A stretch of DNA of 13,011 nt, taken from the UHGV virus genome UHGV-1813710. One strand, 5' to 3'. The translations under genes were made by a program, and so were the position numbers. Origin of the DNA: a virus. The number at the start of each line of letters is the position of its first letter. Position 1 is the stretch's first letter. Shown piece after piece: positions 689-13,011 of the stretch. The notes under the pieces were generated by a model that did no database searches, was not told the origin of the DNA, and was given only the letters and a program-made list of their open reading frames with translations.

Positions 689-871
689 TCAGCCCCCTCG
701 CTTCGCTGGATGAGTGATTTGTTCCACAGACCAATGAGCAAAGCTGTGGTTGATAGGTACCCACTCACCCGCTAAATTAACTGCATAGCGTAACGGGGCT
801 GGCGGTCTAGCATTATCGACCGGTAAGCAACGTAATTGCGGAACCTTGCAAGTTGCTGTTAATATGTTCAT
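689..871 (-). CDS. Small hypothetical phage protein (60 aa)
   Basis: ATG at 871-869 overlaps the TGA of the upstream CII-like ORF (ATGA overlap), and its own stop abuts the start of the downstream gene. The ORF track gives a longer version starting at 925 that would overlap the upstream gene. Confidence 0.4.
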   Translation of the reverse strand: MNILTATCKVPQLRCLPVDNARPPAPLRYAVNLAGEWVPINHSFAHWSVEQITHPAKRGG

Positions 872-1395
872 GCGATTGATTCTCCACACAGACAATTTTT
901 CGCCAAGGCGCCCGGAGCTGCACACTCGCGGGCGTCAACTTTTTCAGGCTCGCAATAGACACGAGCCACAAGCGTAAGAAACTGCATCAAGATGATATGG
1001 ATCTGGTGCGCTACTTCATTTAGCCCATCGAACTCTCGCCGCGTAATGACGTTGTCTGCTTTGTACTCACGATACGCGTTCGACAATTCCCCCAGCTTTG
1101 CCACCAGCTCAGCAAACTTATCGCCGATATCTTCGTTATCAATTTGATCAAGTTCTGGAAGCAATAAGAAAACGCCCCCCGAGATCCGCGCAATAGTTGA
1201 TGCAAAGTCTTCTGTCTGGCTGAATGCTTGCATCTGCAGCGCGTCATTGACGCTCATGTATTGAGCCCCGGCACCGCCACGTTCATAAACAAGGTTTTCA
1301 AGCTTGCAGCGGCTGTAACCTAAAGCGGCTGACATTGCATCCCAGCCGCCGGGATATGCCCTGATCATTGACTGGTAACACTTGCGAATTTCCAC
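868..1395 (-). CDS. CII-like early regulatory protein (phage CII/CP76-type, tentative)
   Basis: 175-aa ORF directly downstream of the cro-like gene on the same strand. GTG start at 1395 with AAGGGG Shine-Dalgarno 6 nt upstream; first in-frame ATG is 27 nt inside. Position and sequence style recall phage 186 CII-type regulators; the family assignment is from memory only. Confidence 0.5.
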   Translation of the reverse strand: MEIRKCYQSMIRAYPGGWDAMSAALGYSRCKLENLVYERGGAGAQYMSVNDALQMQAFSQTEDFASTIARISGGVFLLLPELDQIDNEDIGDKFAELVAKLGELSNAYREYKADNVITRREFDGLNEVAHQIHIILMQFLTLVARVYCEPEKVDARECAAPGALAKNCLCGESIA

Positions 1396-1450
1396 ATAGA
1401 CCCCTTATTGGTTGTGGTTTCTGTAAACATATAAATAATTAATAATGGTT

Positions 1451-1684
1451 TTACTTCGAGCCAATGCGCTTCTTGCTTATCTCCAGCAAGTATTTTGCGG
1501 TGTATTTGCCTTTTGAAGCTTTGGCTATTTTGTTTGCGTAATCGGTCTCGCCACAAAAGTCCGTTCGGGGCAAGGAACCTTTTGAGATCCACTTGTAAAT
1601 TGCTCTTGGTGTGCGCCCGCAACAACTTGCAACCAACAGCACGCCTATTTCTTTCAAGGCATCACCTAACGTCTTATTTTCCAT
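1451..1684 (-). CDS. Cro-like HTH DNA-binding protein (Cro/YdaS-type)
   Basis: 77-aa ORF divergent from the repressor gene. AGGTGA Shine-Dalgarno 5 nt upstream of the ATG at 1684. The segment GRTPRAIYKWISKGSLP looks like the recognition helix region of Cro/YdaS-like proteins. Confidence 0.7.
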   Translation of the reverse strand: MENKTLGDALKEIGVLLVASCCGRTPRAIYKWISKGSLPRTDFCGETDYANKIAKASKGKYTAKYLLEISKKRIGSK

Positions 1685-1689
1685 GCTCT

Positions 1690-1773
1690 CACCTATAAAA
1701 TGAACTTAAAGTACATTCTATGTCAGAACTGAAAGTACATGCAAATGATTCTACAATTGAACCCATGGTACAA
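1690..1773. promoter_or_regulatory. OR-like immunity switch: three 17-bp bipartite operator-like repeats with putative divergent promoters
   Basis: Repeats ATGAAC-TTAAA-GTACAT (1700-1716), CAGAAC-TGAAA-GTACAT (1724-1740) and TTGAAC-CCATG-GTACAA (1757-1773). Candidate leftward promoter on the minus strand: TTGCAT (plus 1744-1739), 18-bp spacer, TAGAAT (plus 1720-1715). Candidate rightward promoter: -10 TACAAT at 1752-1757, placing the transcript start near the ATG at 1765 (leaderless, as for lambda cI). Confidence 0.45.
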
Positions 1774-2700
1774 GACGAAAAAGTGCGGAAAGATTTTGCC
1801 CAGCGGCTAGCACTGGCCTGTAGAGAAGCGGGGCTTGATGATCATGGCCGTGGCACTGAAATAGCCAAGGCGCTAAAGGTTACGGCCAAGGCTGTCAGCA
1901 AATGGCTCAATGCTGAGGCGTTGCCTCGTCAGCCCAAGATGGAGGCGCTGGCAAGGTTCCTGAAGGTCGATATGATATGGTTGCAGCATGGTAAGCGTGA
2001 CTCAAGATCTGCTGATGAGCAGGACGGGATCATTAAGTACAAGGATTTCGCAGATAGGCTAAACTCTCTCATGGGCGATAAGGGGGTGGACGTGAATCAA
2101 TTAAAAGAAATCTGCGATGTCACATTTGAAGTAGCGCGAAGTTATACACTTGGTGTATCAAAACCACGGGATGAAGCATTAGAGAAAATAGCTAATTTTT
2201 TTCAAGTTTCAATGCCATTTCTCGACTATGGCGTAGTTGATGACTCGCAACCATCTTCCGATACTGAAAAATTACAGCAGTTAGCTGTTTACGCCTCGGC
2301 TGGACGTAGCGGATATATAAATTCAGAGTTCCCAGAGGTCATCCGATCGATTGAAATACCCAAAGAGAGGATCTATGAGCTTTTTGGGAGAAAAAGCCTT
2401 GATGGTATCAGCATCATGAACATCAACGGCGATAGTATGATCCCAACTCTCAACCCTAGAGATCTTCTTTTTATTGACACTAGAATTGATAGTTTTAATG
2501 GCGATGGCGTCTATGTATTTTGTTTTGAAGATGCAATGTTTGTTAAGCGATTACAAAGAGTTAAGGGTAGAAGGTTATCAGTAATTTCAGATAATAATGT
2601 TTACCCTCCATTTACAATTGAAGAAAATGAAATGTTTGAGCTGTACATATATGGAAAGTTGATAAAACAATTACCAATGAAGCTCATTGATTTCGCTTAG
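1765..2700 (+). CDS. CI-type prophage repressor with two tandem HTH (XRE-type) domains and a C-terminal S24 (LexA-like) autopeptidase domain
   Basis: C-terminal region contains GDSM (catalytic Ser) and FVKRL (catalytic Lys) plus an Ala-Gly candidate cleavage site (YASAGRSG). Two separate HTH-like segments precede it (…TEIAKALKVTAKAVSKWLN… and …LKEICDVTFEVARSYTLGVS…). Start ambiguous: ATG 1720 (track) or ATG 1765; 1765 is preferred because 1720 lies among the operator repeats and the putative leftward promoter. Confidence 0.85.
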   Translation: MVQDEKVRKDFAQRLALACREAGLDDHGRGTEIAKALKVTAKAVSKWLNAEALPRQPKMEALARFLKVDMIWLQHGKRDSRSADEQDGIIKYKDFADRLNSLMGDKGVDVNQLKEICDVTFEVARSYTLGVSKPRDEALEKIANFFQVSMPFLDYGVVDDSQPSSDTEKLQQLAVYASAGRSGYINSEFPEVIRSIEIPKERIYELFGRKSLDGISIMNINGDSMIPTLNPRDLLFIDTRIDSFNGDGVYVFCFEDAMFVKRLQRVKGRRLSVISDNNVYPPFTIEENEMFELYIYGKLIKQLPMKLIDFA

Positions 2701-2717
2701 CCCTGCCAACCAAACTT

Positions 2718-2745
2718 AAAGCCGACAACTGTCGGCTTTTTTTTT
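2718..2745 (+). terminator. Rho-independent terminator downstream of the repressor gene
   Basis: Stem GCCGAC (2721-2726) pairs with GTCGGC (2731-2736) around a 4-nt loop, followed by nine T residues (2737-2745), 18 nt after the stop codon. Confidence 0.8.
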
Positions 2746-2783
2746 GCAATAATTTCAATAAATTAAATACAACAACCAATAAA

Positions 2784-2830
2784 ATGTACTTCTGGTACTT
2801 GATTAAATTGAACCAATAGTACATTATAAA
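2784..2830 (+). promoter_or_regulatory. OL-like site: two more copies of the operator motif overlapping a putative rightward promoter
   Basis: TTGAAC-CAATA-GTACAT at 2808-2824 (same orientation as the OR copies) and ATGTAC-TTCTG-GTAC at 2784-2800 (inverted copy with a perfect GTACAT half-site on the minus strand). Centres are 24 bp apart, the same spacing as OR copies 1 and 2. TATAAA at 2825-2830 is a possible -10. Confidence 0.4.
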
Positions 2831-2898
2831 TCCATCAACCGCAGTCACTAGCACTATCAGTGGTTGTGGATACTTAAGAGACTTAGGTGGGAGTTCAA

Positions 2899-3159
2899 AT
2901 GACTAGTTATTACACGTGCTCTTTTTGCGGGATACGCGAGCAGGATGCTAAAAGGATTGTTGCCAAGGGTGGCAGAGATGAGCCAGCAATCTGCTCTAAG
3001 TGCATTGTCTCATGTGTAAATGTCATTATTAACGCAGGAACAGTAATGGAAATAGAGAAAAAAGGCGCCAATAAGGGTGAATTAATCCTTGATATGGAAT
3101 TGGCACCTCGATCAGAAAAAATGTCATTTACTCAGACTGAGGTAGCTCAATCGGATTAA
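2899..3159 (+). CDS. Small protein (86 aa) with a ClpX-type C4 zinc-finger (ClpX N-terminal zinc-binding-domain-like) and no ATPase domain
   Basis: Sequence MTSYYTCSFCGIREQDAKRIVAKGGRDEPAICSKCIVSCVNVII has C-x2-C-x19-C-x2-C and parallels the ClpX N-domain (recalled E. coli motif YCSFCGK…RKLIAG…ICDECVDLCNDII). GGGAG Shine-Dalgarno 6 nt upstream of ATG 2899; the track's 2887 start is GTG. Confidence 0.65.
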   Translation: MTSYYTCSFCGIREQDAKRIVAKGGRDEPAICSKCIVSCVNVIINAGTVMEIEKKGANKGELILDMELAPRSEKMSFTQTEVAQSD

Positions 3160-3403
3160 GCGCCATTGACGCCATTGGTAGCTGAATCAATGAGATCGGC
3201 AAGTTGGATAAACTTCTCTCTACCAGTTGACCTTAAGACACTACTGGCATTAGCAGAACAAGCATCACTGGAATATGCCGCTAGCAAGCATATAGCGGTC
3301 TTTAAAGCGCCGAGTTCTTCAATTAAACCTTCTGGCGTTACGTCGTTATCAAGTGACAGTGTGAAATTTGGCATTTTTATCTCTATGTGATTGGTGTACG
3401 ACA

Positions 3404-3440
3404 GGTGGCGACATTGGCCACCACGCTCTTTAAAAATCTG
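3404..3440 (+). terminator. Hairpin with weak T-tract between the convergent genes (possible terminator)
   Basis: GGTGGC (3404-3409), 7-nt loop, GCCACC (3417-3422), followed by ACGCTCTTTAAAAATCT. The T-tract is interrupted, so termination efficiency is uncertain. Confidence 0.3.
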
Positions 3441-3458
3441 GATATCCCTAGTCGATAG

Positions 3459-3971
3459 TTAGAAGATCATTGGAGCGATATCTATTGGCTCATATGCCGA
3501 TTTGTTCATTAGAAAAAGGCTGGCGCAATGAAAGCATTTGCATTGTTCAAAGTAACAAGAGTTATTCGAATTATATCCAACCTCTCCTGTTGGCTGGAGT
3601 ATCGATACTATTTTTTGTGTGAAGCATTTTGGGCAAAGATGCACGGCTATTTGCATTCCGTTAACAGATTCATTCTTAGAATAAACAAACGTTCCAGAAT
3701 CAAGCTGGTTCAGAGCATAACCTTCAGTCTGGCTTTTAAAGTCTTCGAACTCTGCAATTTTTGCTTTGAGCGTTACGGCTTCTTCCTGATAAAAGCGTGC
3801 AAGCTCAATGAGCGACATGCATTCACGCTGCACAGACGTAAGCTTTAAAACCATATCGCTAACAGCAGAATTTATCTCTGCCTGTGTTTTTGCATTTGAA
3901 ATAACTTTCGCCAAAGCAGTCGTTTCTTTAATTGCCGACATTGCAGCTGTGATTTCAACAAACACTTTCAA
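3459..3971 (-). CDS. Hypothetical protein (170 aa): helical/coiled-coil N-terminal half, Cys-rich C-terminal half; AT-rich moron-like gene
   Basis: Protein-like ORF convergent with the flanking rightward genes; the opposite-strand ORFs (3528-3848, 3808-4008) look like antisense artefacts. C-terminal half has a CPKC…C…CKCFHC pattern suggesting metal binding. TTG start at 3971 with no clear Shine-Dalgarno; alternative ATG at 3941. Sequence is visibly more AT-rich than neighbouring phage genes. Confidence 0.5.
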   Translation of the reverse strand: MKVFVEITAAMSAIKETTALAKVISNAKTQAEINSAVSDMVLKLTSVQRECMSLIELARFYQEEAVTLKAKIAEFEDFKSQTEGYALNQLDSGTFVYSKNESVNGMQIAVHLCPKCFTQKIVSILQPTGEVGYNSNNSCYFEQCKCFHCASLFLMNKSAYEPIDIAPMIF

Positions 3972-4269
3972 TACTCATATAGTCGTTGGGGATATTCAGA
4001 CTAACTGAATTCTTGTTGTTGGGGAATAGCAGGAACCACTGCCGCCTGAAGTGGAAAAATAAACAGGCTAAATAAGTTACATGTGAATCATCAGCAGCAG
4101 ACCAGCCGGCGGTGTCTTAACACCGGCAGTACATAATGAATAGCCACTACTCTCCGGGTATTCATGTATGCACGGACAGCTCGGAAAGACGTAGCCGCCT
4201 GATCCACGTTAAGGATCACACAACCGCATGGGTATTTAGATTCAGGGGCGTTTCGAGTACCCAGCCGGT

Positions 4270-4313
4270 TGTGGTGTAGCGGTTACGCGCTGGTTCAAGT
4301 CCAGTCACCACAA
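4270..4313 (+). other. tRNA-like minihelix (acceptor stem, U8-A9, short hairpin and T-arm, but no anticodon arm)
   Basis: TGTGGTG (4270-4276) pairs perfectly with CACCACA (4306-4312). TA follows at 4277-4278, then a GCG-GTTA-CGC hairpin (4279-4288), then T-arm GCTGG-TTCAAGT-CCAGT (4289-4305) with a canonical T-loop sequence, then an A at the discriminator position. Confidence 0.35.
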
Positions 4314-4339
4314 AATATGTTCCATCGCTGTGTAGTCTT

Positions 4340-4406
4340 GGCGGTTGCAGGGTTTCAACCTTTAGAGGATTGATGACTGTTATTTGTCCTGTAACCGCCC
4401 TTTTTC
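4340..4406 (+). terminator. Long hairpin followed by T-tract upstream of the early operon (candidate terminator or attenuator)
   Basis: GGCGGTTGCAGG (4340-4351) pairs with CCTGTAACCGCC (4388-4399): 12 bp including one G-T pair, 36-nt loop, followed by CTTTTTC (4400-4406). Confidence 0.35.
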
Positions 4407-4493
4407 ACCACACAGAGAGAAGTGCTTGTTGAGTGCTGCCCTGTGTGTGGAGAACGTATCGCGATGTGCATCGCACTTTCTGAGGGTCAAACA

Positions 4494-4868
4494 ATGAGTA
4501 AAGAAAATCGCATGACAGTAGTGCCCGAGTTCTTGGGCGAACTGGATGCAGGGATCTTTGAAAATAAGATTGCTGCAGCGTTAAACAGTACCGCTTTAGG
4601 CGTTCTAAACAACGGCGGTAAAGGTCAGGTTGTTGTTACGTTTGATATTGATCGACTGAGCAATTCGGTTGAAGAAAAACGCGTTGGTATTAAGCATAAG
4701 TTGAAGTTCGTTACACCTACCCCACGGGGCAAAGTGTCAGAAGAAGACACCACGGAAACGCCTATGTACGTAGGGAAAGGTGGCAAGTTAACAGTATTGC
4801 AAGAAGATCAAGGGCAACTGTTTTCAATCGATGGCGCCCCGGATGGAAAATTGCGCCAAACGCAATAA
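4494..4868 (+). CDS. Hypothetical phage early protein (124 aa)
   Basis: ATG at 4494 with GAGGG Shine-Dalgarno 7-11 nt upstream. The track's longer form starts at 4422, but that extension is encoded by a palindromic leader and is Cys-rich. Confidence 0.6.
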   Translation: MSKENRMTVVPEFLGELDAGIFENKIAAALNSTALGVLNNGGKGQVVVTFDIDRLSNSVEEKRVGIKHKLKFVTPTPRGKVSEEDTTETPMYVGKGGKLTVLQEDQGQLFSIDGAPDGKLRQTQ

Positions 4869-4925
4869 TCTTGGCAATTAAATAAACCTCACCATTTTAT
4901 TACTTAATTAAAGCAAGGATAAAAC

Positions 4926-5753
4926 ATGTCACAAGTAGACGGTTCAGCTATTCAACAAATTAAAGATCTTTCACTGGCTGCATTTTATTTAGACCCAATT
5001 AAATCAACTAACTGCCCTGCAGTTATTATTCCGTCTGATTATCAAGTTAAGAGCTTGGAAAGCTTAAATGATGGTCGTTTTCGTTTTCGCGGCAAATTAA
5101 GCACAACTAGCATTGCTGATTTTGTTCGTTATTCATCTGCATACTCTGAAGGTCAGCCGGGCGCCAGTTGTTTTATTGACGCTGACAATATGTGTGCAAC
5201 ATCCGTTTTCAACCTAGGCACGCTTGAGAGCGCAGGCCACGCTGATAACACTGCAGCAATCGCTTTGAAAAAAACAGCACCATTCTGTGCTCTGCTTGAT
5301 TTCAATGGCGAAAAGTCACGCCAAAAGCAGCTTGCAGAATGGCTAGAGGATTGGAGCGACTTCCTCACCGCCTTTGATGCAGACGGCAAGGTACTTCCAA
5401 TTAAACAAGCTGTTAGCGCCATTCGCCGTATTACCATTGAATCAGTGCAAAGTGCGGATCATGAAGATGCTGATTTCAGCGGTAAGCAGTCATTGATGCA
5501 AAGTGTAGAGGCTAAAAGCAAAGAGATCATGCCTGTGGCCTTTGAATTTAAGTGCGTACCTTATGAGGGCTTATCCGAGCGCCGTTTCAGTCTGCGTAAT
5601 AGTATTCTGACGGGGGACACGCCTTTATTCGTTCTGCGTATTGTTCAACTGGAAGCTGTAGAGGAAGAAATTGCAAACGAATTCCGTGATCTGCTCACAG
5701 AGCAATTCACAGGCAAATCAATTGAAACCTTTATTGGTAATTTTAAAGCCTAA
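4926..5753 (+). CDS. Hypothetical phage protein, DUF2303/YfdQ-like (recollection, unverified)
   Basis: 275-aa ORF with AAGGA Shine-Dalgarno 7 nt upstream of the ATG. Its size and the following HD-domain gene resemble the yfdQ-yfdR arrangement of the E. coli CPS-53 cryptic prophage. Confidence 0.65.
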
Positions 5754-5779
5754 TTATTAATAACATTTAATACAGCCTT

Positions 5780-5803
5780 AAGCACCGAGCATATTCGGTG
5801 CTT
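5780..5803 (+). other. Perfect 8-bp stem hairpin in the intergenic region between early genes
   Basis: AAGCACCG (5780-5787), 8-nt loop, CGGTGCTT (5796-5803). The downstream tract is only moderately T-rich, so it may be an attenuator or processing/stability element rather than a strong terminator. Confidence 0.3.
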
Positions 5804-5843
5804 AGTGAAGTGTTATCTGTTTAATGTGTGGAGAAATTAAAAA

Positions 5844-6377
5844 GTGAATAGCCCTTATATTATTACCTTCTCAGGTAAAGCATTTAATTTAATCGAGCCT
5901 CAGCGCGAGCAAATAGTGATCGAGGATATTGCTCATGCGCTAGCGAGAGAAAACCGCTTTAACGGTCACACTAAGGCCGCATACAGCGTTGCCCAGCACT
6001 GCTATCACGCATCATTTTGTGTACCGCCAGAGTTCGCACTTGAGGCGCTAATGCATGATGCTGCCGAGGCTTACATCAAAGATATTCCATCACCAATAAA
6101 GCTTCTTTTGCCAGATTATCGCGCATTAGAAAAACGCGTTGAAATGGCTATCTGCGAACGATTTGGCCTACCACTAGCGCTGAGTAGCTGCGTCAAATAT
6201 GCAGACCTCATCATGCTGGCATCAGAAAAACGCGACCTTGGCATCGTCGATGAAAAACCGTGGCCACTTTTGGAAGGTATTCCAGTTGCTGATTTCACTA
6301 TCGAACCAATGACTGCAGAAGTTGCCGAGCATCTCTTTATGGGGCGCTACGTAGAATTGACGGAGCTATGCAAATGA
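5844..6377 (+). CDS. HD-domain phosphohydrolase (YfdR/YfbR-like nucleotidase family)
   Basis: HD-domain signature H…H…HD: IAHALARENRFNGH…YSVAQHCYH…EALMHDAAEAYIKDIPSPIK, plus VKYADLIMLASEKRDLG. GTG start at 5844 with GGAG 11 nt upstream. Confidence 0.75.
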   Translation: MNSPYIITFSGKAFNLIEPQREQIVIEDIAHALARENRFNGHTKAAYSVAQHCYHASFCVPPEFALEALMHDAAEAYIKDIPSPIKLLLPDYRALEKRVEMAICERFGLPLALSSCVKYADLIMLASEKRDLGIVDEKPWPLLEGIPVADFTIEPMTAEVAEHLFMGRYVELTELCK

Positions 6378-6754
6378 CGCACATCAGTGAAATACCAGCA
6401 GGAACATTAGTTAAGCAAGCGCATGCAGGCGTGAAGCTTATTGCTGAACAGTATCCAGAGGCAGCGGCAATATTACGTGAAGCCATTACACGCTTTGATG
6501 TGTTGCGTGAGGTCCACCAGCTGACCAACCACAAAGTTAAAAAGCCCGTTACTGATGTGAAGCCTAATGATGTTGTTTGTGTTTTTGGTAAGTGCTACCG
6601 GCTGCGATACATCAACTATTACGGGAACCATTCAGTATTGCGCTTTCAGCCAGCTAGAGAGCCACTATCTCCATATACAGAAAATGATGTGATCAGCATC
6701 GATTTAGCAAATGACATTCTGATTGAGGTTGTGGGGGGGCTGAACAATGTCTGA
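6374..6754 (+). CDS. Hypothetical phage protein (about 126 aa)
   Basis: ATG at 6374 overlaps the TGA of the HD-domain gene (ATGA), with GGAG 8 nt upstream; the track uses the in-frame ATG at 6368. Confidence 0.55.
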   Translation: MTHISEIPAGTLVKQAHAGVKLIAEQYPEAAAILREAITRFDVLREVHQLTNHKVKKPVTDVKPNDVVCVFGKCYRLRYINYYGNHSVLRFQPAREPLSPYTENDVISIDLANDILIEVVGGLNNV

Positions 6755-7499
6755 ATTATCAACTGAGCGTTTAGAAAAATTCGTCAACGATATTAAAACT
6801 GATGGGATGTGCGACATAACTGATTATCAAGTTGCGTTGGCGTTACGTCAGTTACTGGCATACGAGCAAGCAGTACCGGTATTACCTAAACAGCCTGAGA
6901 CTCAGTTCGATGAAATCGCGCTTGATACTGCAAGAGAGATTATGCGTGATGTAAACCAGCGCCATGAATTGATTGGCGGTGAGTGTCAGTTGCTTGCGCG
7001 CACTCAGTGTCGAATTAATGACGTACTGTGTAACGTCGCAGCACCAGCACAACCTGTAATACCAGAACAAGCTAAGCCTGTGGCATATACAGACAATAGA
7101 AACTTAAAAAGTCTACAGAAAGGATGTAATACGGCATTGCTCTGGCTTAAGCATAACGCCGAAGTTGGTGATATTCCTCTATATACCGAAGTGCCGACAC
7201 AACCTGTAAGCGAGCCTTACAAGCTACCAGTCGGATATTTTTCTTATGGCTCTGAGTGTGGTTTTGATTGGCACAATACAGAGAAAGAAGCGATTGAAGC
7301 TGCCGAGGCTGTAATTGACAACTATCGCGGTGATGCGTGCGACGGCTGGTCTGAGGAAACAGACAGTGTCTGCTGGGGTGTCATTTTGCAACAGGCAACA
7401 AAGGTCGATGAGCGCCCACGTACTGATGATGATAAATGCGATCCGGCTATTGATACGGTCTGTGATTACGCGCTACTACCGGCGCAGGAGAGCGAATAA
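6747..7499 (+). CDS. Hypothetical phage protein (250 aa), Cys-containing C-terminal region
   Basis: Start overlaps the upstream gene by 8 nt, with a GGGGG Shine-Dalgarno. Ends in …AQESE, whose codons form the Shine-Dalgarno for the next gene. Confidence 0.6.
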   Translation: MSELSTERLEKFVNDIKTDGMCDITDYQVALALRQLLAYEQAVPVLPKQPETQFDEIALDTAREIMRDVNQRHELIGGECQLLARTQCRINDVLCNVAAPAQPVIPEQAKPVAYTDNRNLKSLQKGCNTALLWLKHNAEVGDIPLYTEVPTQPVSEPYKLPVGYFSYGSECGFDWHNTEKEAIEAAEAVIDNYRGDACDGWSEETDSVCWGVILQQATKVDERPRTDDDKCDPAIDTVCDYALLPAQESE

Positions 7500-8263
7500 T
7501 GCGCCCTCACTTTCACGGAACCCCGATTTGGGGGAATGCTGGCGATGTTTTGCGTGTTGCTGTTAGCGGAGCTGGTGCATTCGTTTCTTACGTTAGACCA
7601 GACCAGATTGAGCGCTGTTTTAAATATGCGGATAGTGTAGCTATCGATAACGGCGCGTTTTCAGCATGGAAAAGCGGCAAGAAATTGGATTGGAATAAAT
7701 TCTATGAATTCCTGTACAGGCATTATCACCGCTCAAAGCTTGCATTTTTTTGTATTCCAGACGTTGTGGAAGGTGGTGAAAGCGATAACGACGCAATGAT
7801 TAAAGCCGTTCCGCACATATTCAAAGAAAAAGCAGCTCCGGTTTGGCATTTACACGAATCTATCGAGCGCTTAATTCGTTTGTGCGAAGAGTGGCCGCGC
7901 GTGTGTTTTGGCTCGTCTGGTCAGTACGCGCGAACATTAACAAAGCTATGGCATGAGCGCATGAAAGAAGCTTTCACGGAGATTTATATCAAGCGCCAAC
8001 TGACAACGAAAATACACGGACTACGCATGCTTGATGGTCGCATTTTGGGTAACTACCCGCTACACAGCGCAGATAGCACAAACCTAGCATGCAACGTTCC
8101 AAAATTTAACATGAAGTATCCAGAGCTAACCCGAGCTGTATTAGATAAGGGGTATGGTCAAGACATGGTTCAACTACACCGTTGCGCGATTCTAAAAAAC
8201 TCAATTGAGTCAGTAACACCGCCGAGCATCGCGGCGTGGGTAGCTGCACAGGAGAGCGAATAA
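7499..8263 (+). CDS. Hypothetical phage protein (254 aa); weak, unverified resemblance to tRNA-guanine transglycosylase (TGT)/DpdA-type proteins
   Basis: TAATG overlap with the upstream gene. Segments HGTPIWG, VAIDNGAFSAW and GLRMLDG loosely parallel the TGT segments PVGTYG, LTDSGGFQV and GIDMFDCV (recollection, not a computed alignment). Confidence 0.6.
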   Translation: MRPHFHGTPIWGNAGDVLRVAVSGAGAFVSYVRPDQIERCFKYADSVAIDNGAFSAWKSGKKLDWNKFYEFLYRHYHRSKLAFFCIPDVVEGGESDNDAMIKAVPHIFKEKAAPVWHLHESIERLIRLCEEWPRVCFGSSGQYARTLTKLWHERMKEAFTEIYIKRQLTTKIHGLRMLDGRILGNYPLHSADSTNLACNVPKFNMKYPELTRAVLDKGYGQDMVQLHRCAILKNSIESVTPPSIAAWVAAQESE

Positions 8264-8264
8264 T

Positions 8265-8549
8265 ATGGCTCGGACGATTAACGACTCTATAGATGCAACT
8301 ATAGCCTCTCTCGTTAGTAACATTCACAACTTGCGCAAAGAAGTAGAAGAATCAGCCGTTCTACGACTGGCAAGCTTCCGCCAGCGCGAACTAATGATCG
8401 AAGGCGTTCGACAAATGTCCGCGCATTACAAAAAGGAGGCGAAAAGCTTTATGGACTCACAAGATCAAGTTGAGGCCATTGATTGCAGCTATATCGCTAA
8501 AAAGTGTGATGCATTTATTGCGCACATTATGAAGCAGGAGAGCAAATAA
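8265..8549 (+). CDS. Hypothetical phage protein (94 aa), predicted helical
   Basis: ATG 2 nt after the upstream stop, preceded by the same CAGGAGAGCGAATAAT junction motif. Confidence 0.55.
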   Translation: MARTINDSIDATIASLVSNIHNLRKEVEESAVLRLASFRQRELMIEGVRQMSAHYKKEAKSFMDSQDQVEAIDCSYIAKKCDAFIAHIMKQESK

Positions 8550-8911
8550 TGCCGACTAACAAGATAACAGAGCATTATCTTAGTTCATTGATCGTTAGAT
8601 TGCGCCGCCGCGCGTTTGAACTGACAGGGACTCAATCAGCGAATCTTATGAATGAAGCAGCTAAAGCGATCTATGAATTTCGTGAGTATAGAAGAGCTAA
8701 TCCAGCGTTGCCCGCCGGCTGGAAGATAGCCCCGCGAGATCCGGATGAGGAAATGATTATAAGGGGTTTTGAGTCTGAACCCGATGAATCATTCAGCACG
8801 CCGGAGGATTGGGAGCGGTACGAAAAAATGAGTGGATGCGAGCAAGCTGCGCATAGAGTCAAATTAAGTTGGACTGCAATGTTTGATGCAATACCCCCCA
8901 TTAAGGATTAA
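8549..8911 (+). CDS. Hypothetical phage protein (120 aa)
   Basis: TAATG overlap with the upstream gene; third copy of the junction motif (CAGGAGAGCAAATAATG). Confidence 0.55.
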   Translation: MPTNKITEHYLSSLIVRLRRRAFELTGTQSANLMNEAAKAIYEFREYRRANPALPAGWKIAPRDPDEEMIIRGFESEPDESFSTPEDWERYEKMSGCEQAAHRVKLSWTAMFDAIPPIKD

Positions 8912-9505
8912 ATGATGATCGACTCAATTGTTATTGATACCGAAACTATGGATGTGCGCCCATCTGCATTATTGCTTTCAATCGGCGCAATTGCATTCGA
9001 TGTGACAGATCTCGAAGCGCTTCGCTACAACATTTCTTATGCAGTTAAAGCGGAGCACCACAGCAGTGAGTCATATGTTTTCTATCATCTGCTAGATGCT
9101 AATTCACAGATCATGGTAGGCCGCACCGTGTCTAGAAGCACTCAGATGTGGTGGAGGGGGCAAGGTGATTCAGCAAAAGCAGCGTTGGATGGCGATAAGC
9201 AAGATCTAAAAGAAGTACTTGAAGCATTGACGCACTGGATAGCTCAATATCCAGATGCACAGATTTATTTTCGTGGTACTGACTTTGACGGTTCTATTCT
9301 CGAGAGTGCGTATCGAGCTTACGACTTGAAATGTCCGTGGAAATATAATGGCAAGCGCGATGTACGTACATTCATTGATGCATTGAGCGGGAGCGATAAG
9401 GGTTATATTGCAGATCATGAACCTTGCTTTGCAATGATTAAGCATAATTCACTTCATGATGCGATGAACGATGCAGAGCAAATGGCTATAGCTCACTCTC
9501 TTTAA
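8912..9505 (+). CDS. DEDDh-type (DnaQ-like) 3'-5' exonuclease
   Basis: Exo I-like IVIDTETMD, Exo II-like FRGTDFDGSILESAY and Exo III-like HNSLHDAMNDAEQ are present in the expected order and spacing. ATG immediately follows the upstream TAA. Confidence 0.75.
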   Translation: MMIDSIVIDTETMDVRPSALLLSIGAIAFDVTDLEALRYNISYAVKAEHHSSESYVFYHLLDANSQIMVGRTVSRSTQMWWRGQGDSAKAALDGDKQDLKEVLEALTHWIAQYPDAQIYFRGTDFDGSILESAYRAYDLKCPWKYNGKRDVRTFIDALSGSDKGYIADHEPCFAMIKHNSLHDAMNDAEQMAIAHSL

Positions 9506-9513
9506 TAATTTAC

Positions 9514-9545
9514 GGCCCGTGTGCAGCGGGCCATATTTAATTTAT
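9514..9545 (+). terminator. Hairpin with AT-rich tail between the exonuclease gene and xis (weak terminator or attenuator)
   Basis: GGCCCG (9514-9519), 7-nt loop, CGGGCC (9527-9532), followed by ATATTTAATTTAT. Confidence 0.35.
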
Positions 9546-9563
9546 CTGTGTGGAGTTTTAATC

Positions 9564-9782
9564 ATGGCGAAAGAAGCTAAATTGATGCGCGCGAGCGCGT
9601 GGGGCAAGCGTGAGTTCGAGGTGGGTTCTATTCCTGATAATAGAACTATTAGGCGCTGGATAGAAAATGGCCGTTTGCGTGGCCGGATTGTTGATGGAAC
9701 CATTTTGGTTTATTCATCTGAACGCTGGGGTATTGAGTCTGTTGTATCCCACCACGTACATAATTTAATTAGTGAATCATGA
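9564..9782 (+). CDS. xis: Excisionase (lambda Xis-like)
   Basis: Lies immediately upstream of int with an ATGA overlap. Segment RTIRRWIENGRLRGRIVDGTILVYSSE parallels lambda Xis ETVRRWVRECRIFPPPVKDGREYLFHES. GGAG 9 nt upstream of ATG 9564; the track's 9519 start lacks a Shine-Dalgarno. Confidence 0.75.
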   Translation: MAKEAKLMRASAWGKREFEVGSIPDNRTIRRWIENGRLRGRIVDGTILVYSSERWGIESVVSHHVHNLISES

Positions 9783-10960
9783 TGGCAGCTCGACCACGCA
9801 AGCGTGAAAACCGGCACCTTCCCGATCTGCTGTATTTCGATAAAGTTGCCGGCGTTTATCGCTTTACCCTAATCACGGGAAAGAGAAAATCATTAGGCTC
9901 TGACCGTGCTTTAGCAATCGCTATTGCGCGTGAATATAACAATAGAATGCGACCGGATATAGTTGTATCAGTTGACTCGCTTATTAGTGAATCGGGCGGC
10001 TTGAAGGGGGAATCCCTGCCCTTCTCCAGTCATGTTGATCATATTCTCGCTCGTGCTATCACGGACGAGAAACCAAGCCCTGATACAAAGGCTGACTGGA
10101 TGAATGATGCAAAACGAGTGAAAGAATTCTTCATTGACATTCACTGCTGCGATATTGAACTAGAGCACGTCAATGCGTTCATTCAGCATTATCATGCTGA
10201 AGCATCAGCAAACGTACAAAACCGCAAAGTTAGTTTTCTAAAGAAATTATTTAGTTATGCAGTAGACGAATCGTTAATGTTCGATAATCCAGCAACTAGA
10301 AAGAAAATGCGGAGAATTGAGGGGAAAGTTCGCCAACGCTTATCTTTCGACAATCTGATGGCTATACGAAACGCCGCGGATCGATGGCTGCGAACTGCGA
10401 TAGATCTAGCTCTACAGACAACGCACGCCCGGCTTGAAGTTTCCCGAATTCGCTATTCAATCAAAGAGCCCAAAAATGGCGTGTGTGGCTGTGTGTGGTT
10501 CGACGCTCCAGAGAGTGGGATTTATGGCGTTATGTATATACACAGGCAGAAAGTGCAGCACAAAGAAGCATCACACGTCGCAATACCAATCGGGCCTGAA
10601 CTTAAAAGAATTATTGATGATAGCCGCGACAATGCTGCTAGCCCATACATTGTTCATCGTTTACCAAAACGCAATAATAAGCCAAGCAAAGAGGTTTCAC
10701 ATCCTACACAAGTAGCGCCAGACTACTTGAGCCGGGCATTCTCAACACTTCGAGATGAGCTCGGGATTTGCTCACATCTTGAAATGGATGAACGTCCGAC
10801 ATTCCATGAAATCCGAGCGCTTGCTGCACACCTATTTGATACGCAAGGCATTGACCCACAGGGCCGCATGGCTCACAGCGACGCTAAGTCGACTAAGATA
10901 TACACGCAAAATCATATCGATTGGGTCATGGTGCCGCACGGCGAGATCAAGACGGGATGA
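9779..10960 (+). CDS. int: Tyrosine site-specific integrase, lambda Int family
   Basis: N-terminus RENRHLPDLLYF…GKRKSLGSDRALAIA parallels lambda Int HERRDLPPNLYI…GKEFGLGRDRRIAIT. C-terminus has PTFHEIRALAAHLF (H-x-x-R box) and …STKIYTQNH (catalytic Tyr). Adjacent to xis and to the tRNA-derived att core. Confidence 0.95.
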   Translation: MMAARPRKRENRHLPDLLYFDKVAGVYRFTLITGKRKSLGSDRALAIAIAREYNNRMRPDIVVSVDSLISESGGLKGESLPFSSHVDHILARAITDEKPSPDTKADWMNDAKRVKEFFIDIHCCDIELEHVNAFIQHYHAEASANVQNRKVSFLKKLFSYAVDESLMFDNPATRKKMRRIEGKVRQRLSFDNLMAIRNAADRWLRTAIDLALQTTHARLEVSRIRYSIKEPKNGVCGCVWFDAPESGIYGVMYIHRQKVQHKEASHVAIPIGPELKRIIDDSRDNAASPYIVHRLPKRNNKPSKEVSHPTQVAPDYLSRAFSTLRDELGICSHLEMDERPTFHEIRALAAHLFDTQGIDPQGRMAHSDAKSTKIYTQNHIDWVMVPHGEIKTG

Positions 10961-10991
10961 TTGATGGTAAAACCCATACTTAAGCTATTGA

Positions 10992-11037
10992 TGTATATAC
11001 ACCAACTTTTGCGAATTATGCACTGTTTGTATATACA
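10992..11037 (+). repeat. Two direct copies of TGTATATACA between int and the att core (candidate integrase arm-type or IHF sites)
   Basis: TGTATATACA at 10992-11001 and again at 11028-11037, 36 bp apart, in the roughly 130-bp AT-rich stretch between the int stop and the tRNA fragment. Confidence 0.35.
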
Positions 11038-11094
11038 GTCGACAACCTAGAGAAACCAGTGCTGGCGCGGGTTTCAGCGTGTTGAATACGCTAA

Positions 11095-11140
11095 CATGGG
11101 GTGTCGGGGGTCGGAGGTTCAAATCCTCTCGTGCCGACCA
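11095..11140 (+). other. Partial tRNA: 3' about 45 nt of a tRNA-Pro-like gene (anticodon loop to CCA), i.e. the att core repeat at the prophage boundary
   Basis: T-arm GGAGG-TTCAAAT-CCTCT (11113-11129), acceptor 3' strand CGTGCCG, discriminator A and CCA (11138-11140). No complementary 5' acceptor strand (CGGCACG) upstream, so the tRNA is not intact. GGG sits at the inferred anticodon position and the string matches my recollection of enterobacterial tRNA-Pro. Confidence 0.65.
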
Positions 11141-11152
11141 AATAATCCCAAG

Positions 11153-11182
11153 AAAACCAACCTATTATGGGTTGGTTTTTTT
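11153..11182 (+). terminator. Rho-independent terminator (tRNA-gene-type) just outside the att core
   Basis: AAAACCAACC stem, TATTATG loop, GGTTGGTTTT pairing, followed by a run of T residues to 11182. Confidence 0.7.
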
Positions 11183-11453
11183 ATGTCTTCAATTTGTCAC
11201 TACGGCCAATATTACGCGCAGCAAGAAGTAAAAAAGCCCCCAAAGTGATTGGGTGGCGGGCTGAGGAAGTGCTCGAGATGGCTGAAGCAGGACTGATATA
11301 CGACGAATTTAGGGTAGTCTAAAGCTATTTGAATCCTCATGACCACGCTGAGGTTGAGGTATACTGCTTCAGAGCGGGGTAAATAAATTACGTCGCTATA
11401 GACAGACATAGGGATTGTCGCAGTTCTGGTCAGAAGACATTAGGATTGAGAAT

Positions 11454-11780
11454 ATGGAAATAAATCACTGCGAATTATATGTCAAAGACCTTGTCGGCCT
11501 GTCCCTGATTTTGATTGTGTGGGCTGTACTCGTCTGGAACTTCATTTCCTGCTGTTTCACAGGGCGTGCTAGCTTTATGTTTTCCCGTTATAGCTTCAGA
11601 CGCACCAAGGACGAATTGGGAATCATTGGGGATCGAACGGGAAGTAAGATACTCTATTTCTTAGCTATGGCGCTCAAGTTACTTTTAATTGTATTTTTTT
11701 CATACAGTGTATTTGTGCCATTGTTCAGCCCTGGAGTATTTGAGGAAGTAATGGGCCACATTTTTACCTGCCATAAATGA
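11454..11780 (+). CDS. Possible small membrane protein (two hydrophobic segments); doubtful
   Basis: ATG at 11454 with AGGA 9 nt upstream; the track form starts at TTG 11415. Two hydrophobic stretches (LVGLSLILIVWAVLVWNFI and ILYFLAMALKLLLIVFFSYSVFVPLF). Could equally be a degraded region. Confidence 0.25.
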   Translation: MEINHCELYVKDLVGLSLILIVWAVLVWNFISCCFTGRASFMFSRYSFRRTKDELGIIGDRTGSKILYFLAMALKLLLIVFFSYSVFVPLFSPGVFEEVMGHIFTCHK

Positions 11781-11989
11781 GTTCTGATACTCTACCCTCC
11801 CCCCACGGTGAACTTTTAATGTTAATAAGTTTGTTCATTTCGTTACGTTGCTTCTGCAGATGGAGCCCCTCTATAACGAATAAAAAAACAATCATTAGGG
11901 TCTTTTAATACCTAATTAACCAAAAGTAACATAGCATTTTCATAATAGATAAAATTAGATATAATCAAATATTATCTATTATTAATAGC

Positions 11990-12997
11990 ATGGCTAATTT
12001 TTATTACATGGATACAGACAAAAATTTCAATCATGAAAATGATTCACTATTCAAAAAAAACACTATTAAAACAAGCAATAACAATCTAAAAGTACTAAAT
12101 ATTGCATTCTGTTTTGATGATAATTTTGTGATGCCAACAGGTGTAGCCATTGCATCTGTCATTGAAAACAATAAAGACTCGCACCTCCACTTTCATTTAT
12201 TCTTCGAATCCATTTCTGAAAAAAACAAATCTAGAATACTTGAGATACAAGGTGATAACGTTTCAATAACAACATATGAACTTCAGGAAGAACTATCCGT
12301 CAATCCTAATACACTCATTCTGGGAATCCCAAAGTCCACGTGCTTAAGATTTATGGTTCCTTTTGTTCTACGGCATGAGGTTGATTCTGTTTTATATTTG
12401 GATGGCGATATGATTTGCTTAGATTCATTACACGCCTTACATGACCTAAACCTTAAAGGACATATTGCCGCTGTAGTTGCTGACTCTAAAGAGATGCAAC
12501 AGAAAGCCAGCACACTAGGATACGGTATTGATACCGATAAATATTTCAATGCAGGATTTTTATTTATCAATGTATCTGAGTGGAATTTTAAAAATGTCAC
12601 CGCCGTGGCATTTAACATGATCAATAGCGGTACAATTTATAAATATGCCGATCAGGATGTATTAAATATACTCTTAAACGAAAACATTAAATTAATTGAC
12701 AAGAAATATAATAAAACTATAACGCTAAGCCCTATCGATAGGGTAGATGATAATGCATCTCGTGGCACAACCATTTTGCATTATGTTACAAAAAATAAAC
12801 CGTGGTTTATGATATTTGAGTCTCAGATTTTCTTTTATTACCTGAATCAATCTCCATGGAAAGACACGCAATTAAAACTGACACCTAATGCTAGCCTGCT
12901 TAGAATAAAGGCAAAAAAACTCCTTTCTGATAAGAAATTTGTCGATTGGATAAAATATTTCTCCCTATATATTAAATATAAATTATTTAGCAAATAA
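11990..12997 (+). CDS. Glycosyltransferase family 8 (LPS/LOS glycosyltransferase-like, RfaJ/LgtC type)
   Basis: GT8 hallmarks: NIAFCFDDNFVMPTGVAIASV (nucleotide-sugar binding region), YLDGDMIC (DxD motif), NAGFLFINVSEW, YADQDVLN and HY…KPW. Very AT-rich gene preceded by an AT-rich promoter-like region. Confidence 0.8.
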   Translation: MANFYYMDTDKNFNHENDSLFKKNTIKTSNNNLKVLNIAFCFDDNFVMPTGVAIASVIENNKDSHLHFHLFFESISEKNKSRILEIQGDNVSITTYELQEELSVNPNTLILGIPKSTCLRFMVPFVLRHEVDSVLYLDGDMICLDSLHALHDLNLKGHIAAVVADSKEMQQKASTLGYGIDTDKYFNAGFLFINVSEWNFKNVTAVAFNMINSGTIYKYADQDVLNILLNENIKLIDKKYNKTITLSPIDRVDDNASRGTTILHYVTKNKPWFMIFESQIFFYYLNQSPWKDTQLKLTPNASLLRIKAKKLLSDKKFVDWIKYFSLYIKYKLFSK

Positions 12998-13011
12998 AAC
13001 CATCAGCATTA

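Follow-up and report, generated by a model that had tools for sequence, protein, structure and literature searches.

An island that integrates into a tRNA gene (tDNA) cuts the gene in two and repairs it with sequence of its own, leaving a displaced fragment by which the end of the island can be recognized; the crossovers lie either in the anticodon loop or in the region of the T-loop and acceptor (PMC4383910). Here we describe a junction of this type in a stretch of viral DNA of 13,011 nucleotides, UHGV virus genome UHGV-1813710, the whole of which is referred to below as the window. The junction lies downstream of an integrase gene (int), where a non-coding arm leads into the 3' part of a tRNA-Pro gene, and we conclude with a probability of roughly 0.93 that it is the integrase-proximal attachment (att) junction, P-O-B' or attR, of a lambdoid prophage in the proL gene of Hafnia paralvei. 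The class A tDNA islands of Islander (PMC4383910, citing Williams 2002) likewise have a tyrosine integrase beside a displaced 3' fragment that starts at the anticodon loop, a regenerated tRNA gene at the other end (seen here in relatives) and a fragment that marks the end of the island precisely. There is no difference in principle between those islands and the present locus, where int is found at the end that bears the fragment and reads towards it, and the junction is of an ordinary, well-understood kind.

Phage lambda provides the second point of comparison. As in lambda, the integrase is heterobivalent, with an arm-binding domain, a small xis-like gene overlaps the start of int, and int is transcribed towards the att site. 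The protein is, however, only about 25% identical to lambda Int, and its target is a tRNA gene and not the gal-bio attB. The lambda int gene adjoins the short P' arm, whereas here int adjoins the long arm.

The att core consists of 46 nt that match exactly the 3' part of Escherichia coli K-12 proL, the gene for tRNA-Pro(GGG), and that are also identical to the 3' end of the intact H. paralvei proL (Table 1). These 46 nt run from the last anticodon-stem base through the anticodon loop ATGGGGT, the 3' strand of the stem, the variable loop and the T arm to the 3' acceptor strand, with the discriminator base and CCA at the end. The match occurs once in the window, none of 200 shuffled sequences contained any, and it is separated from the int stop codon by a non-coding arm of 134 bp (10961-11094). 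An earlier note on this DNA had described 45 nt ending in CCA at 11140 as tRNA-Pro-like and without a 5' half; the fragment is real, and its true length is 46 nt with an exact match to proL. In every lineage of the family the identity begins one base 5' of ATGGGGT (at 11095 in the window), which is the class A pattern, and by analogy with class A sites the crossover most likely took place inside the 7-nt anticodon loop.

From 11095 to 13011 the window is identical at 1917 of 1917 positions to two unoccupied H. paralvei loci (L009 and L010). There, yejK-yejL-yejM come first and are followed by the 5' half of tRNA-Pro(GGG), which the same bases make into an intact gene; to the left of 11095 the window has no match in either locus. 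This exact identity to phage-free loci therefore places the junction at 11094/11095 and makes the terminator that follows the core the host's own. On its sequence, the region reads as a P-O-B' junction in which a phage arm is joined to the host 3' part of the tRNA gene, its trailer, its terminator and the genes downstream. An exact-sequence look-up of the glycosyltransferase encoded to the right of the junction returned 10 contigs, in 8 of which its gene lies downstream of yejK-yejL-yejM and an intact, phage-free tRNA-Pro(GGG) gene. The corresponding GT8 protein cluster is labelled Hafnia paralvei by its sources, and further along the Hafnia chromosome the GT8 gene is followed by AraC and HdeA homologues. 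The terminator hairpin at 11150-11182 has a folding energy of -17 kcal/mol (z=-4.2) and is followed by a U run; it closely resembles the native E. coli proL terminator and is less like the phage-borne terminators of free phages.

Exact continuity with the unoccupied loci thus bears out the proposal of the earlier note that a prophage-host junction lies at a tRNA-Pro gene, with the fragment as the att core of the integrase end. The tRNA-type terminator that was said to be retained right after the core is likewise a real hairpin, and its identity to the empty loci shows it to be the host proL terminator. The junction fixes the right boundary of the prophage at 11094/11095 and names proL as the integration site, which matters for annotation only. 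As a separate observation, two alleles of the proL trailer (window 11141-11149; L005 9158-9167) circulate in H. paralvei, namely AATAATCCC, found in the window, L009, L010, L075 and L077, and AAGAACTCCC, found in L005, L006, L007, L008, L011, L012 and L014.

Related elements display parts of the arrangement that lie outside the window. The Escherichia phages Flotzy, Eeyore and Phi06_2987 S and a proL prophage of E. coli ST131 encode integrases 74-75% identical to that of the window (74.6% for Flotzy and Eeyore), and they share an arm of 75-79% nucleotide identity, an identical 46-nt core and a palindrome, discussed below, at the same place. In the genomes of Flotzy and Eeyore, int, the homologous arm, the 46-nt core, a terminator of their own, tandem arm-type repeats and genes for UmuD-like and DinI proteins all lie internally, so that these phages carry an intact attP. 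In the complete E. coli ST131 genome (NZ_CP015085), two exact cores lie 46.2 kb apart. The left core is the 3' end of an intact tRNA-Pro gene that comes after yejK-yejL-yejM, and it is followed by a phage-type terminator (AACCAGCC...GGCTGGTT, as in Flotzy), a DinI-like gene and the lambdoid prophage; the right core is preceded by the integrase gene, cargo genes and the homologous arm and is followed by a native K-12-type terminator (AACCAACC...GGTTGGTT), yejO and narP. The window's phage has the same proL target as these four relatives but a Hafnia host, the GGTAAAA rather than the GGGGAAA form of the motif at the start of the arm, no cargo between int and the arm, and a different segment just 5' of the core.

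Two further loci come from the same Hafnia site. L006 holds a second related prophage, whose arm is 95% identical to that of the window and which carries a further gene, of the DUF4760 family, in the space between int and the arm. The metagenome contig L075 is the informative one of three loci obtained when metagenomes were scanned with the host sequence upstream of proL. In this contig, yejM and an intact tRNA-Pro gene are followed by a 4.8-kb remnant, a second core and then DNA that is 98.8% identical to window 11094-12626. The remnant consists of two acyltransferase (Acyl_transf_3) genes and a gene with a tailspike N-terminal domain, and it is bounded by 93-bp direct repeats (130-222 and 4902-4994, reverse complement) that cover core, trailer and terminator, correspond to window 11095-11187 and have one private single-nucleotide polymorphism each. 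The repeat on the tRNA side is one variable-loop base off the host consensus, as expected if this copy arrived with the element. A search for the far end through YejM homologues, together with a look-up of the Hafnia representative, returned only empty sites (another Hafnia lineage, a fimbrial operon downstream), and no viral contig matched the L075 P' arm or the window arm in exact-pattern scans.

These comparisons suggest the following course of events. The 3' part of the tRNA-Pro gene was present as a copy in the phage attP and was recombined with chromosomal proL by the lambda-type integrase, which has an arm-binding domain, most likely within the anticodon loop. Integration left the host 3' tRNA part, trailer and terminator beside the phage arm (11095-11187), while the phage-borne copy should complete a functional tRNA gene beside yejM at the other prophage end, fused to CGGCACGTAGCGCAGCCTGGTAGCGCACCGT. 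Past the CCA of that far end, at about 57-90 nt, two to three tandem sites resembling ATGGTAAAAC are expected. In the arm itself, a probable arm-type site, an IHF-like site (IHF, integration host factor) and the palindrome may serve the recombination complex, to judge from their position and conservation (Table 1). We infer an intact tRNA gene at the far end of the window's own prophage because relatives (ST131 and L075) show this arrangement and because a functional proL should be needed.

Several points weigh against this account. The far end is outside the window, and apart from the window the exact integrase is recorded solely on one contig of 10.3 kb, which breaks off 3 nt past the CCA. 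If the attP of the window's phage shared the 93-bp block of L075, the sequence could not place the end of phage DNA within 11095-11187, and the terminator would formally be of either origin. The earlier note had held that the right end is fixed to within a few bp; this stands for the left limit of host identity, which is exact at 11094/11095, and fails for the crossover should the attP have been like that of L075. ARAGORN, unlike the covariance model discussed below, does report a tRNA at this position, which is superficially the intact tRNA that the earlier note had named as evidence to the contrary. Finally, only about 11 kb of the element is visible, so that it could be a truncated remnant.

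This last point leads to the rival explanation that survives best, although we regard it as unlikely. The region could be the junction of a defective element whose far end has been deleted or rearranged, without an intact phage or a matching attL. Such decay is known at this very locus, where L075 retains no more than two acyltransferase genes and a tailspike gene between its repeats. The ST131 element has a recombinase fragment beside the arm, and just 11 kb of the present element is visible. The genes that can be seen are nevertheless all intact; from the immunity region and early operon through the xis-like gene to int and the arm nothing is missing, and the order is collinear with that in the inducible phages Flotzy and Eeyore. 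In addition, the host is expected to need proL, and every other locus examined had an intact copy.

For the arm, 30 distinct sequences were aligned (the window, free phages, IMG/VR contigs, Serratia, Enterobacter, Rosenbergiella and other genomes). The comparison yields a usable arm map for this integrase family, on which an arm-type and an IHF-like site are marked along with the core. The best candidate for an arm-type Int site, GATGGTAAAAC, starts 3 nt past the int stop codon. Depending on the lineage, the motif at the start of the arm reads GGTAAAA or GGGGAAA, and attP-type relatives (L001, L003, L062, L021, L027 and L072) repeat their own form in two to three tandem copies, about 11 bp apart and 57-90 nt past the CCA. 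In Hafnia L075, an attL, GATGGTAAAAC-TATGGTAAAAC stands at that same distance past the CCA, and no copy of the motif follows the CCA in attR-type loci, which have host DNA past the core and include the window. Because the form of the motif covaries between the two arms, it behaves as expected of arm-type Int sites, and we consider GATGGTAAAAC a probable, predicted site of this kind; taken by itself, its single copy in the window is not significant. In lambda the arm-type sites are laid out as P1 and P'1-3, a layout that the arm-start motif and the tandem copies resemble. The likeness extends to the position of the candidate site, about 130 bp from the core and beside an IHF-like site, and to the three tandem arm-type sites in the other arm of relatives.

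Matches to the IHF consensus number 18 in the window against 21 expected, which is the chance frequency, so that the assignment of the IHF-like site draws entirely on its conservation pattern. In the block TAA-NNNN-TTGATG (reverse complement CATCAA-NNNN-TTA), the TAA and TTGATG elements are invariant across the 30 distinct arms and the middle 4 nt vary. A rightward promoter made up of TTGATG, a spacer of 19-20 nt and AATTAT or AAAAAT was considered and rejected, its spacer being too long and the arrangement not being kept in the Serratia arms.

The earlier note had singled out two copies of TGTATATACA in the arm as candidate arm-type or IHF sites. The repeats are real, since TGTATATACA occurs at 10992-11001, at 11028-11037 and, inside int, at 10533-10542, that is three times in the window against 0.41 expected, a count reached by none of 200 shuffles; the first copy does adjoin the IHF-like site. 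The arm-type role, on the other hand, did not hold up, as the two copies belong to two different conserved blocks, the second being the AT-rich centre, or spacer, of the palindrome. Two exact 10-mers placed 36 bp apart in the arm, enriched in the window and both falling within conserved blocks, are what one might take for arm-type Int sites, rather than for parts of an IHF-like site and of a palindrome resembling a LexA box. However, the 10-mer is exact only in two Hafnia arms, those of the window and of L006. In other relatives the position of the first copy reads, for example, TGTATATAGT or TGTGTATAGG, and the two blocks are unlike each other (TTGATGTATATAG versus ACTGTTTGCATATACAGT). The P' arms of attP-type relatives contain no similar motif, whereas GGTAAAA or GGGGAAA is present there and covaries, and TGTATATACA is self-reverse-complementary, whereas arm-type sites are directional. 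We therefore consider this assignment improbable, and the TGTATATACA repeats are probably not arm-type sites.

A further possibility is that the DNA belongs to an unintegrated phage or a plasmid-like prophage, in which case the region would be an intact attP (P-O-P') and the terminator and downstream DNA would be phage-borne. The free phages Flotzy and Eeyore do share the order int, arm, core and terminator, and some loci in bacterial contigs, such as L072, have the appearance of P-O-P'. Yet the 1917 bp from the core onwards are 100% identical to phage-free chromosomal yejM-proL loci, the tandem repeats found 57-90 nt past the CCA of attP-type loci are missing in the window, and what follows instead is the GT8 glycosyltransferase gene, with the AraC and HdeA homologues after it in the Hafnia chromosome. 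An intact attP is very improbable on these grounds.

We also asked whether the core belongs to a whole tRNA gene. ARAGORN reads 11057-11140 as a tRNA-Ser(tga) of 84 nt whose anticodon is at position 27, and makes the same call in L015. An Rfam scan of the whole window gave no family that reached its gathering score. With permissive settings the Rfam tRNA model scored 19.4 bits at the fragment, against a gathering score of 29, while the intact tRNA-Pro gene at the unoccupied locus scored 54.9 bits with the same model in a search of equal size. The 45 nt upstream of the core were no more similar to the true tRNA-Pro 5' half than shuffled sequences were (P=0.85 in the window), and a decayed tRNA-Pro 5' half at that place was rejected, as local alignments remained at shuffle level in 9 arm variants (P=0.09-1.0). 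The minimum-energy fold of the 84-nt segment is not a cloverleaf, and its energy is no better than that of shuffles (z=-0.47). Given the sub-threshold covariance score, the ordinary fold and the lack of upstream similarity, the absence of a matching 5' half stands. The covariance check proposed in the earlier note accordingly passes no intact tRNA, and the tRNA-Ser call was rejected as a false positive on covariance-model score and folding. It arises because of a chance 7-bp complementarity, TGGCGCG/CGTGCCG, together with a small hairpin with a 7-nt loop. That 11057-11140 should be a complete tRNA gene, functional or degenerate, with anticodon TGA is scarcely credible: CGTGCCG has a possible pairing partner in TGGCGCG (11063-11069), and the hairpin AGCGT GTTGAAT ACGCT, with its 5-bp stem, mimics an anticodon arm, but a D arm is lacking and the upstream part is neither kept in Flotzy-type arms nor like any tRNA-Pro 5' half. 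Junctions of this type are thus liable to be called as tRNA genes by ARAGORN. Weak Rfam matches to small RNAs over the terminator (AbsR25, STnc240 and HPnc0260) were also set aside, being far below their gathering scores and driven by the T arm and the hairpin.

The palindrome in the arm is the only unusual feature of the junction. It has the CTGT-N8-ACAG geometry of the LexA operators of Gammaproteobacteria and scores 21.0 bits with a LexA matrix, above the leave-one-out median of 18.4 bits of the 23 E. coli LexA boxes from which this approximate matrix was made. The site is unique in the window, where the next best scores 9.6 bits, and none of 200 simulated 13-kb sequences reached 21.0. A site is found at this position in each of the 30 distinct arms, which come from Hafnia, Escherichia, Serratia and other Enterobacterales, with a median of 18.7 bits and a range of 12.4-21.8. 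The most conserved block of the arm is ATGCACTGTTTG-(6-7 variable nt)-ACAGTC, in which CTG and CAG are kept and changes are concentrated in the spacer. The conservation of the left half of the palindrome and its 5' flank, ATGCACTGTTTG, exceeds what LexA binding by itself would require, with ATGCA and TTTG invariant on one side. Unlike known LexA operators, the palindrome lies inside a recombination arm, downstream of int and not upstream of an obvious SOS gene, and its flank is extra-conserved.

A leftward promoter-like site brackets the palindrome. Its -35 element is mostly TTGACT in relatives, and its -10 element is weak there (CATTTT or CATTTC). In the window's phage, a transcript from this predicted promoter would cross the arm and then run antisense to int; no gene lies downstream of it, and the palindrome adjoins no obvious SOS gene. 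The slot between int and the arm, empty in the window's phage, is a hot spot for cargo genes in relatives. L062 (11561-12498) and L021 (11521-12422) have minus-strand pairs of a CapH-like helix-turn-helix (HTH) gene and a CapP/IrrE-like M78 peptidase gene there, and E. coli ST131 (L016 46435-49015) has minus-strand DUF2971/PDC-S31 and TPR genes as well as a recombinase fragment. In L006 (7972-8976) the slot is taken by the DUF4760 gene, which is on the plus strand and so opposite to the leftward promoter. Judging from these positions and strands, the predicted promoter could serve the minus-strand cargo genes in three other lineages.

That the palindrome is a genuine LexA operator built into the attP/attR arm, to which LexA binds with consequences at this place, is a possibility that we put forward tentatively and consider rather doubtful. 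If LexA bound here, the host SOS repressor would be linked directly to a phage attachment site. It might gate the leftward promoter, whose transcript would cross the arm, enter the variable cargo slot and run antisense to int. Alternatively, it might physically prevent the excisive complex from forming for as long as the SOS response has not removed LexA, which would amount to a direct check on excision by a host repressor, on top of cleavage of the phage repressor. A serious alternative is that the palindrome serves as an accessory site for recombination, because its extra invariance is one-sided and its position matches that of the Xis and Fis sites of lambda. In lambda these sites occupy the corresponding position of the arm, where the present arm has the palindrome. 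A literature search returned no description of a LexA box within a phage att site and nothing specific on proL prophages or on Flotzy and Eeyore.

On the phage side, the integrase of 393 residues has the Pfam domain Arm-DNA-bind_1 (PF09003) at 29.1 bits (cutoff 22) and matches the PHROG integrase family phrog_1 (E=1e-25). Residues 5-360 align with lambda Int chains (E=4e-8), residues 5-47 with the lambda Int N-terminus. The HxxR box reads PTFHEIRAL against PTFHELRSL in lambda, and in the C-terminal AHSDAKSTKIY the His and Tyr are, by eye, 9 residues apart, which is the spacing of H333 and Y342 in lambda. The Pfam Phage_integrase model scored 21.7, below its cutoff of 27.1, and the first catalytic Arg and the Lys were not confidently aligned. 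The open reading frame of 72 codons in the xis position had no Pfam or PHROG match; its likeness to lambda Xis is confined to 11 residues (TIRRWIENGRL versus TVRRWVRECRI, pairwise E=0.01), and from its position and size it is a candidate excisionase. The remaining phage genes to the left of the junction include, besides the regulators listed in Table 1, YfdP/YfdQ/YfdR-type early genes, a DpdA-like gene and a gene for an Rv2179c-type exonuclease.

Table 1. Positions in the window of the features at the junction and of the adjoining phage and host genes
Feature	Position	Strand	Basis
CII-like gene	868-1395	-	Pfam/PHROG searches
Cro-like repressor gene	1451-1684	-	Pfam/PHROG searches
CI-like repressor gene, HTH and S24 peptidase domains	1720-2700		Pfam/PHROG searches
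Candidate excisionase gene, 72 aa, overlapping the int start by 4 nt	9564-9782	+	Position and size as lambda xis
Lambda-type tyrosine integrase gene (int), 393 aa, N-terminal arm-binding domain	9779-10960	+	Pfam, PHROG, lambda Int alignment
Best candidate arm-type Int site, GATGGTAAAAC	10963-10973	+	Covariation with tandem copies in the other arm of relatives
IHF-like site, CATCAATAGCTTA	10981-10993	-	12/13 positions of WATCAANNNNTTR
First TGTATATACA copy	10992-11001	.	Overlaps the conserved TTGATG-T-TA block
Leftward promoter-like site, TCGACT-16-CATAAT, bracketing the palindrome	11015-11042	-	Consensus scan only, 9/12 matches
LexA/SOS-box-like palindrome, CACTGTTTGTATATACAGTC, CTGT-N8-ACAG	11021-11040	.	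Matrix score and conservation in 30 arms
Displaced proL tRNA-Pro(GGG) 3' fragment, att core	11095-11140	+	Exact identity to intact proL; host identity starts at 11095
Anticodon loop ATGGGGT, inferred strand-exchange region	11096-11102	+	Analogy with class A tDNA sites (PMC4383910)
proL trailer and host intrinsic terminator, hairpin 11150-11182	11141-11187	+	Identical to L009/L010; orthologous to the K-12 proL terminator
Host chromosome downstream of proL: 121-aa open reading frame and GT8 glycosyltransferase gene (11990-12997)	11188-13011	+	Identity to empty loci; Pfam Glyco_transf_8 E=7e-47

Some minor observations concern individual genes and contigs. The DpdA-like gene of the early operon (7499-8263) matches PHROG 887, 'queuine tRNA-ribosyltransferase' (E=5e-82), an annotation also carried by a gene of phage Eeyore, and hints at a 7-deazaguanine DNA modification. 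L015, the only other recorded contig with the exact integrase, covers window 820-11143 in 10.3 kb at 100% identity and stops 3 nt past the CCA, which fits an assembly interrupted by a repeated or polymorphic site. In L072 (11194-11500, Serratia microhaemolytica) and L073, arm, core and terminator lead into three tandem ATGGTAAA(A/G) sites, an attP-like P-O-P' arrangement within a bacterial contig that could reflect tandem prophages or an episomal form. L017 has a second partial tRNA 3' fragment (CCTCTCATGCCGACCA and the same trailer) about 120 nt past the first, at approximately 11360-11530, which suggests stacked integration scars. Finally, the 7.2-kb viral contig L060 has core-like sequence at both ends (10-113 and 7086-7183); it is a small element with an att site on each side, or else an assembly that is circularly permuted.

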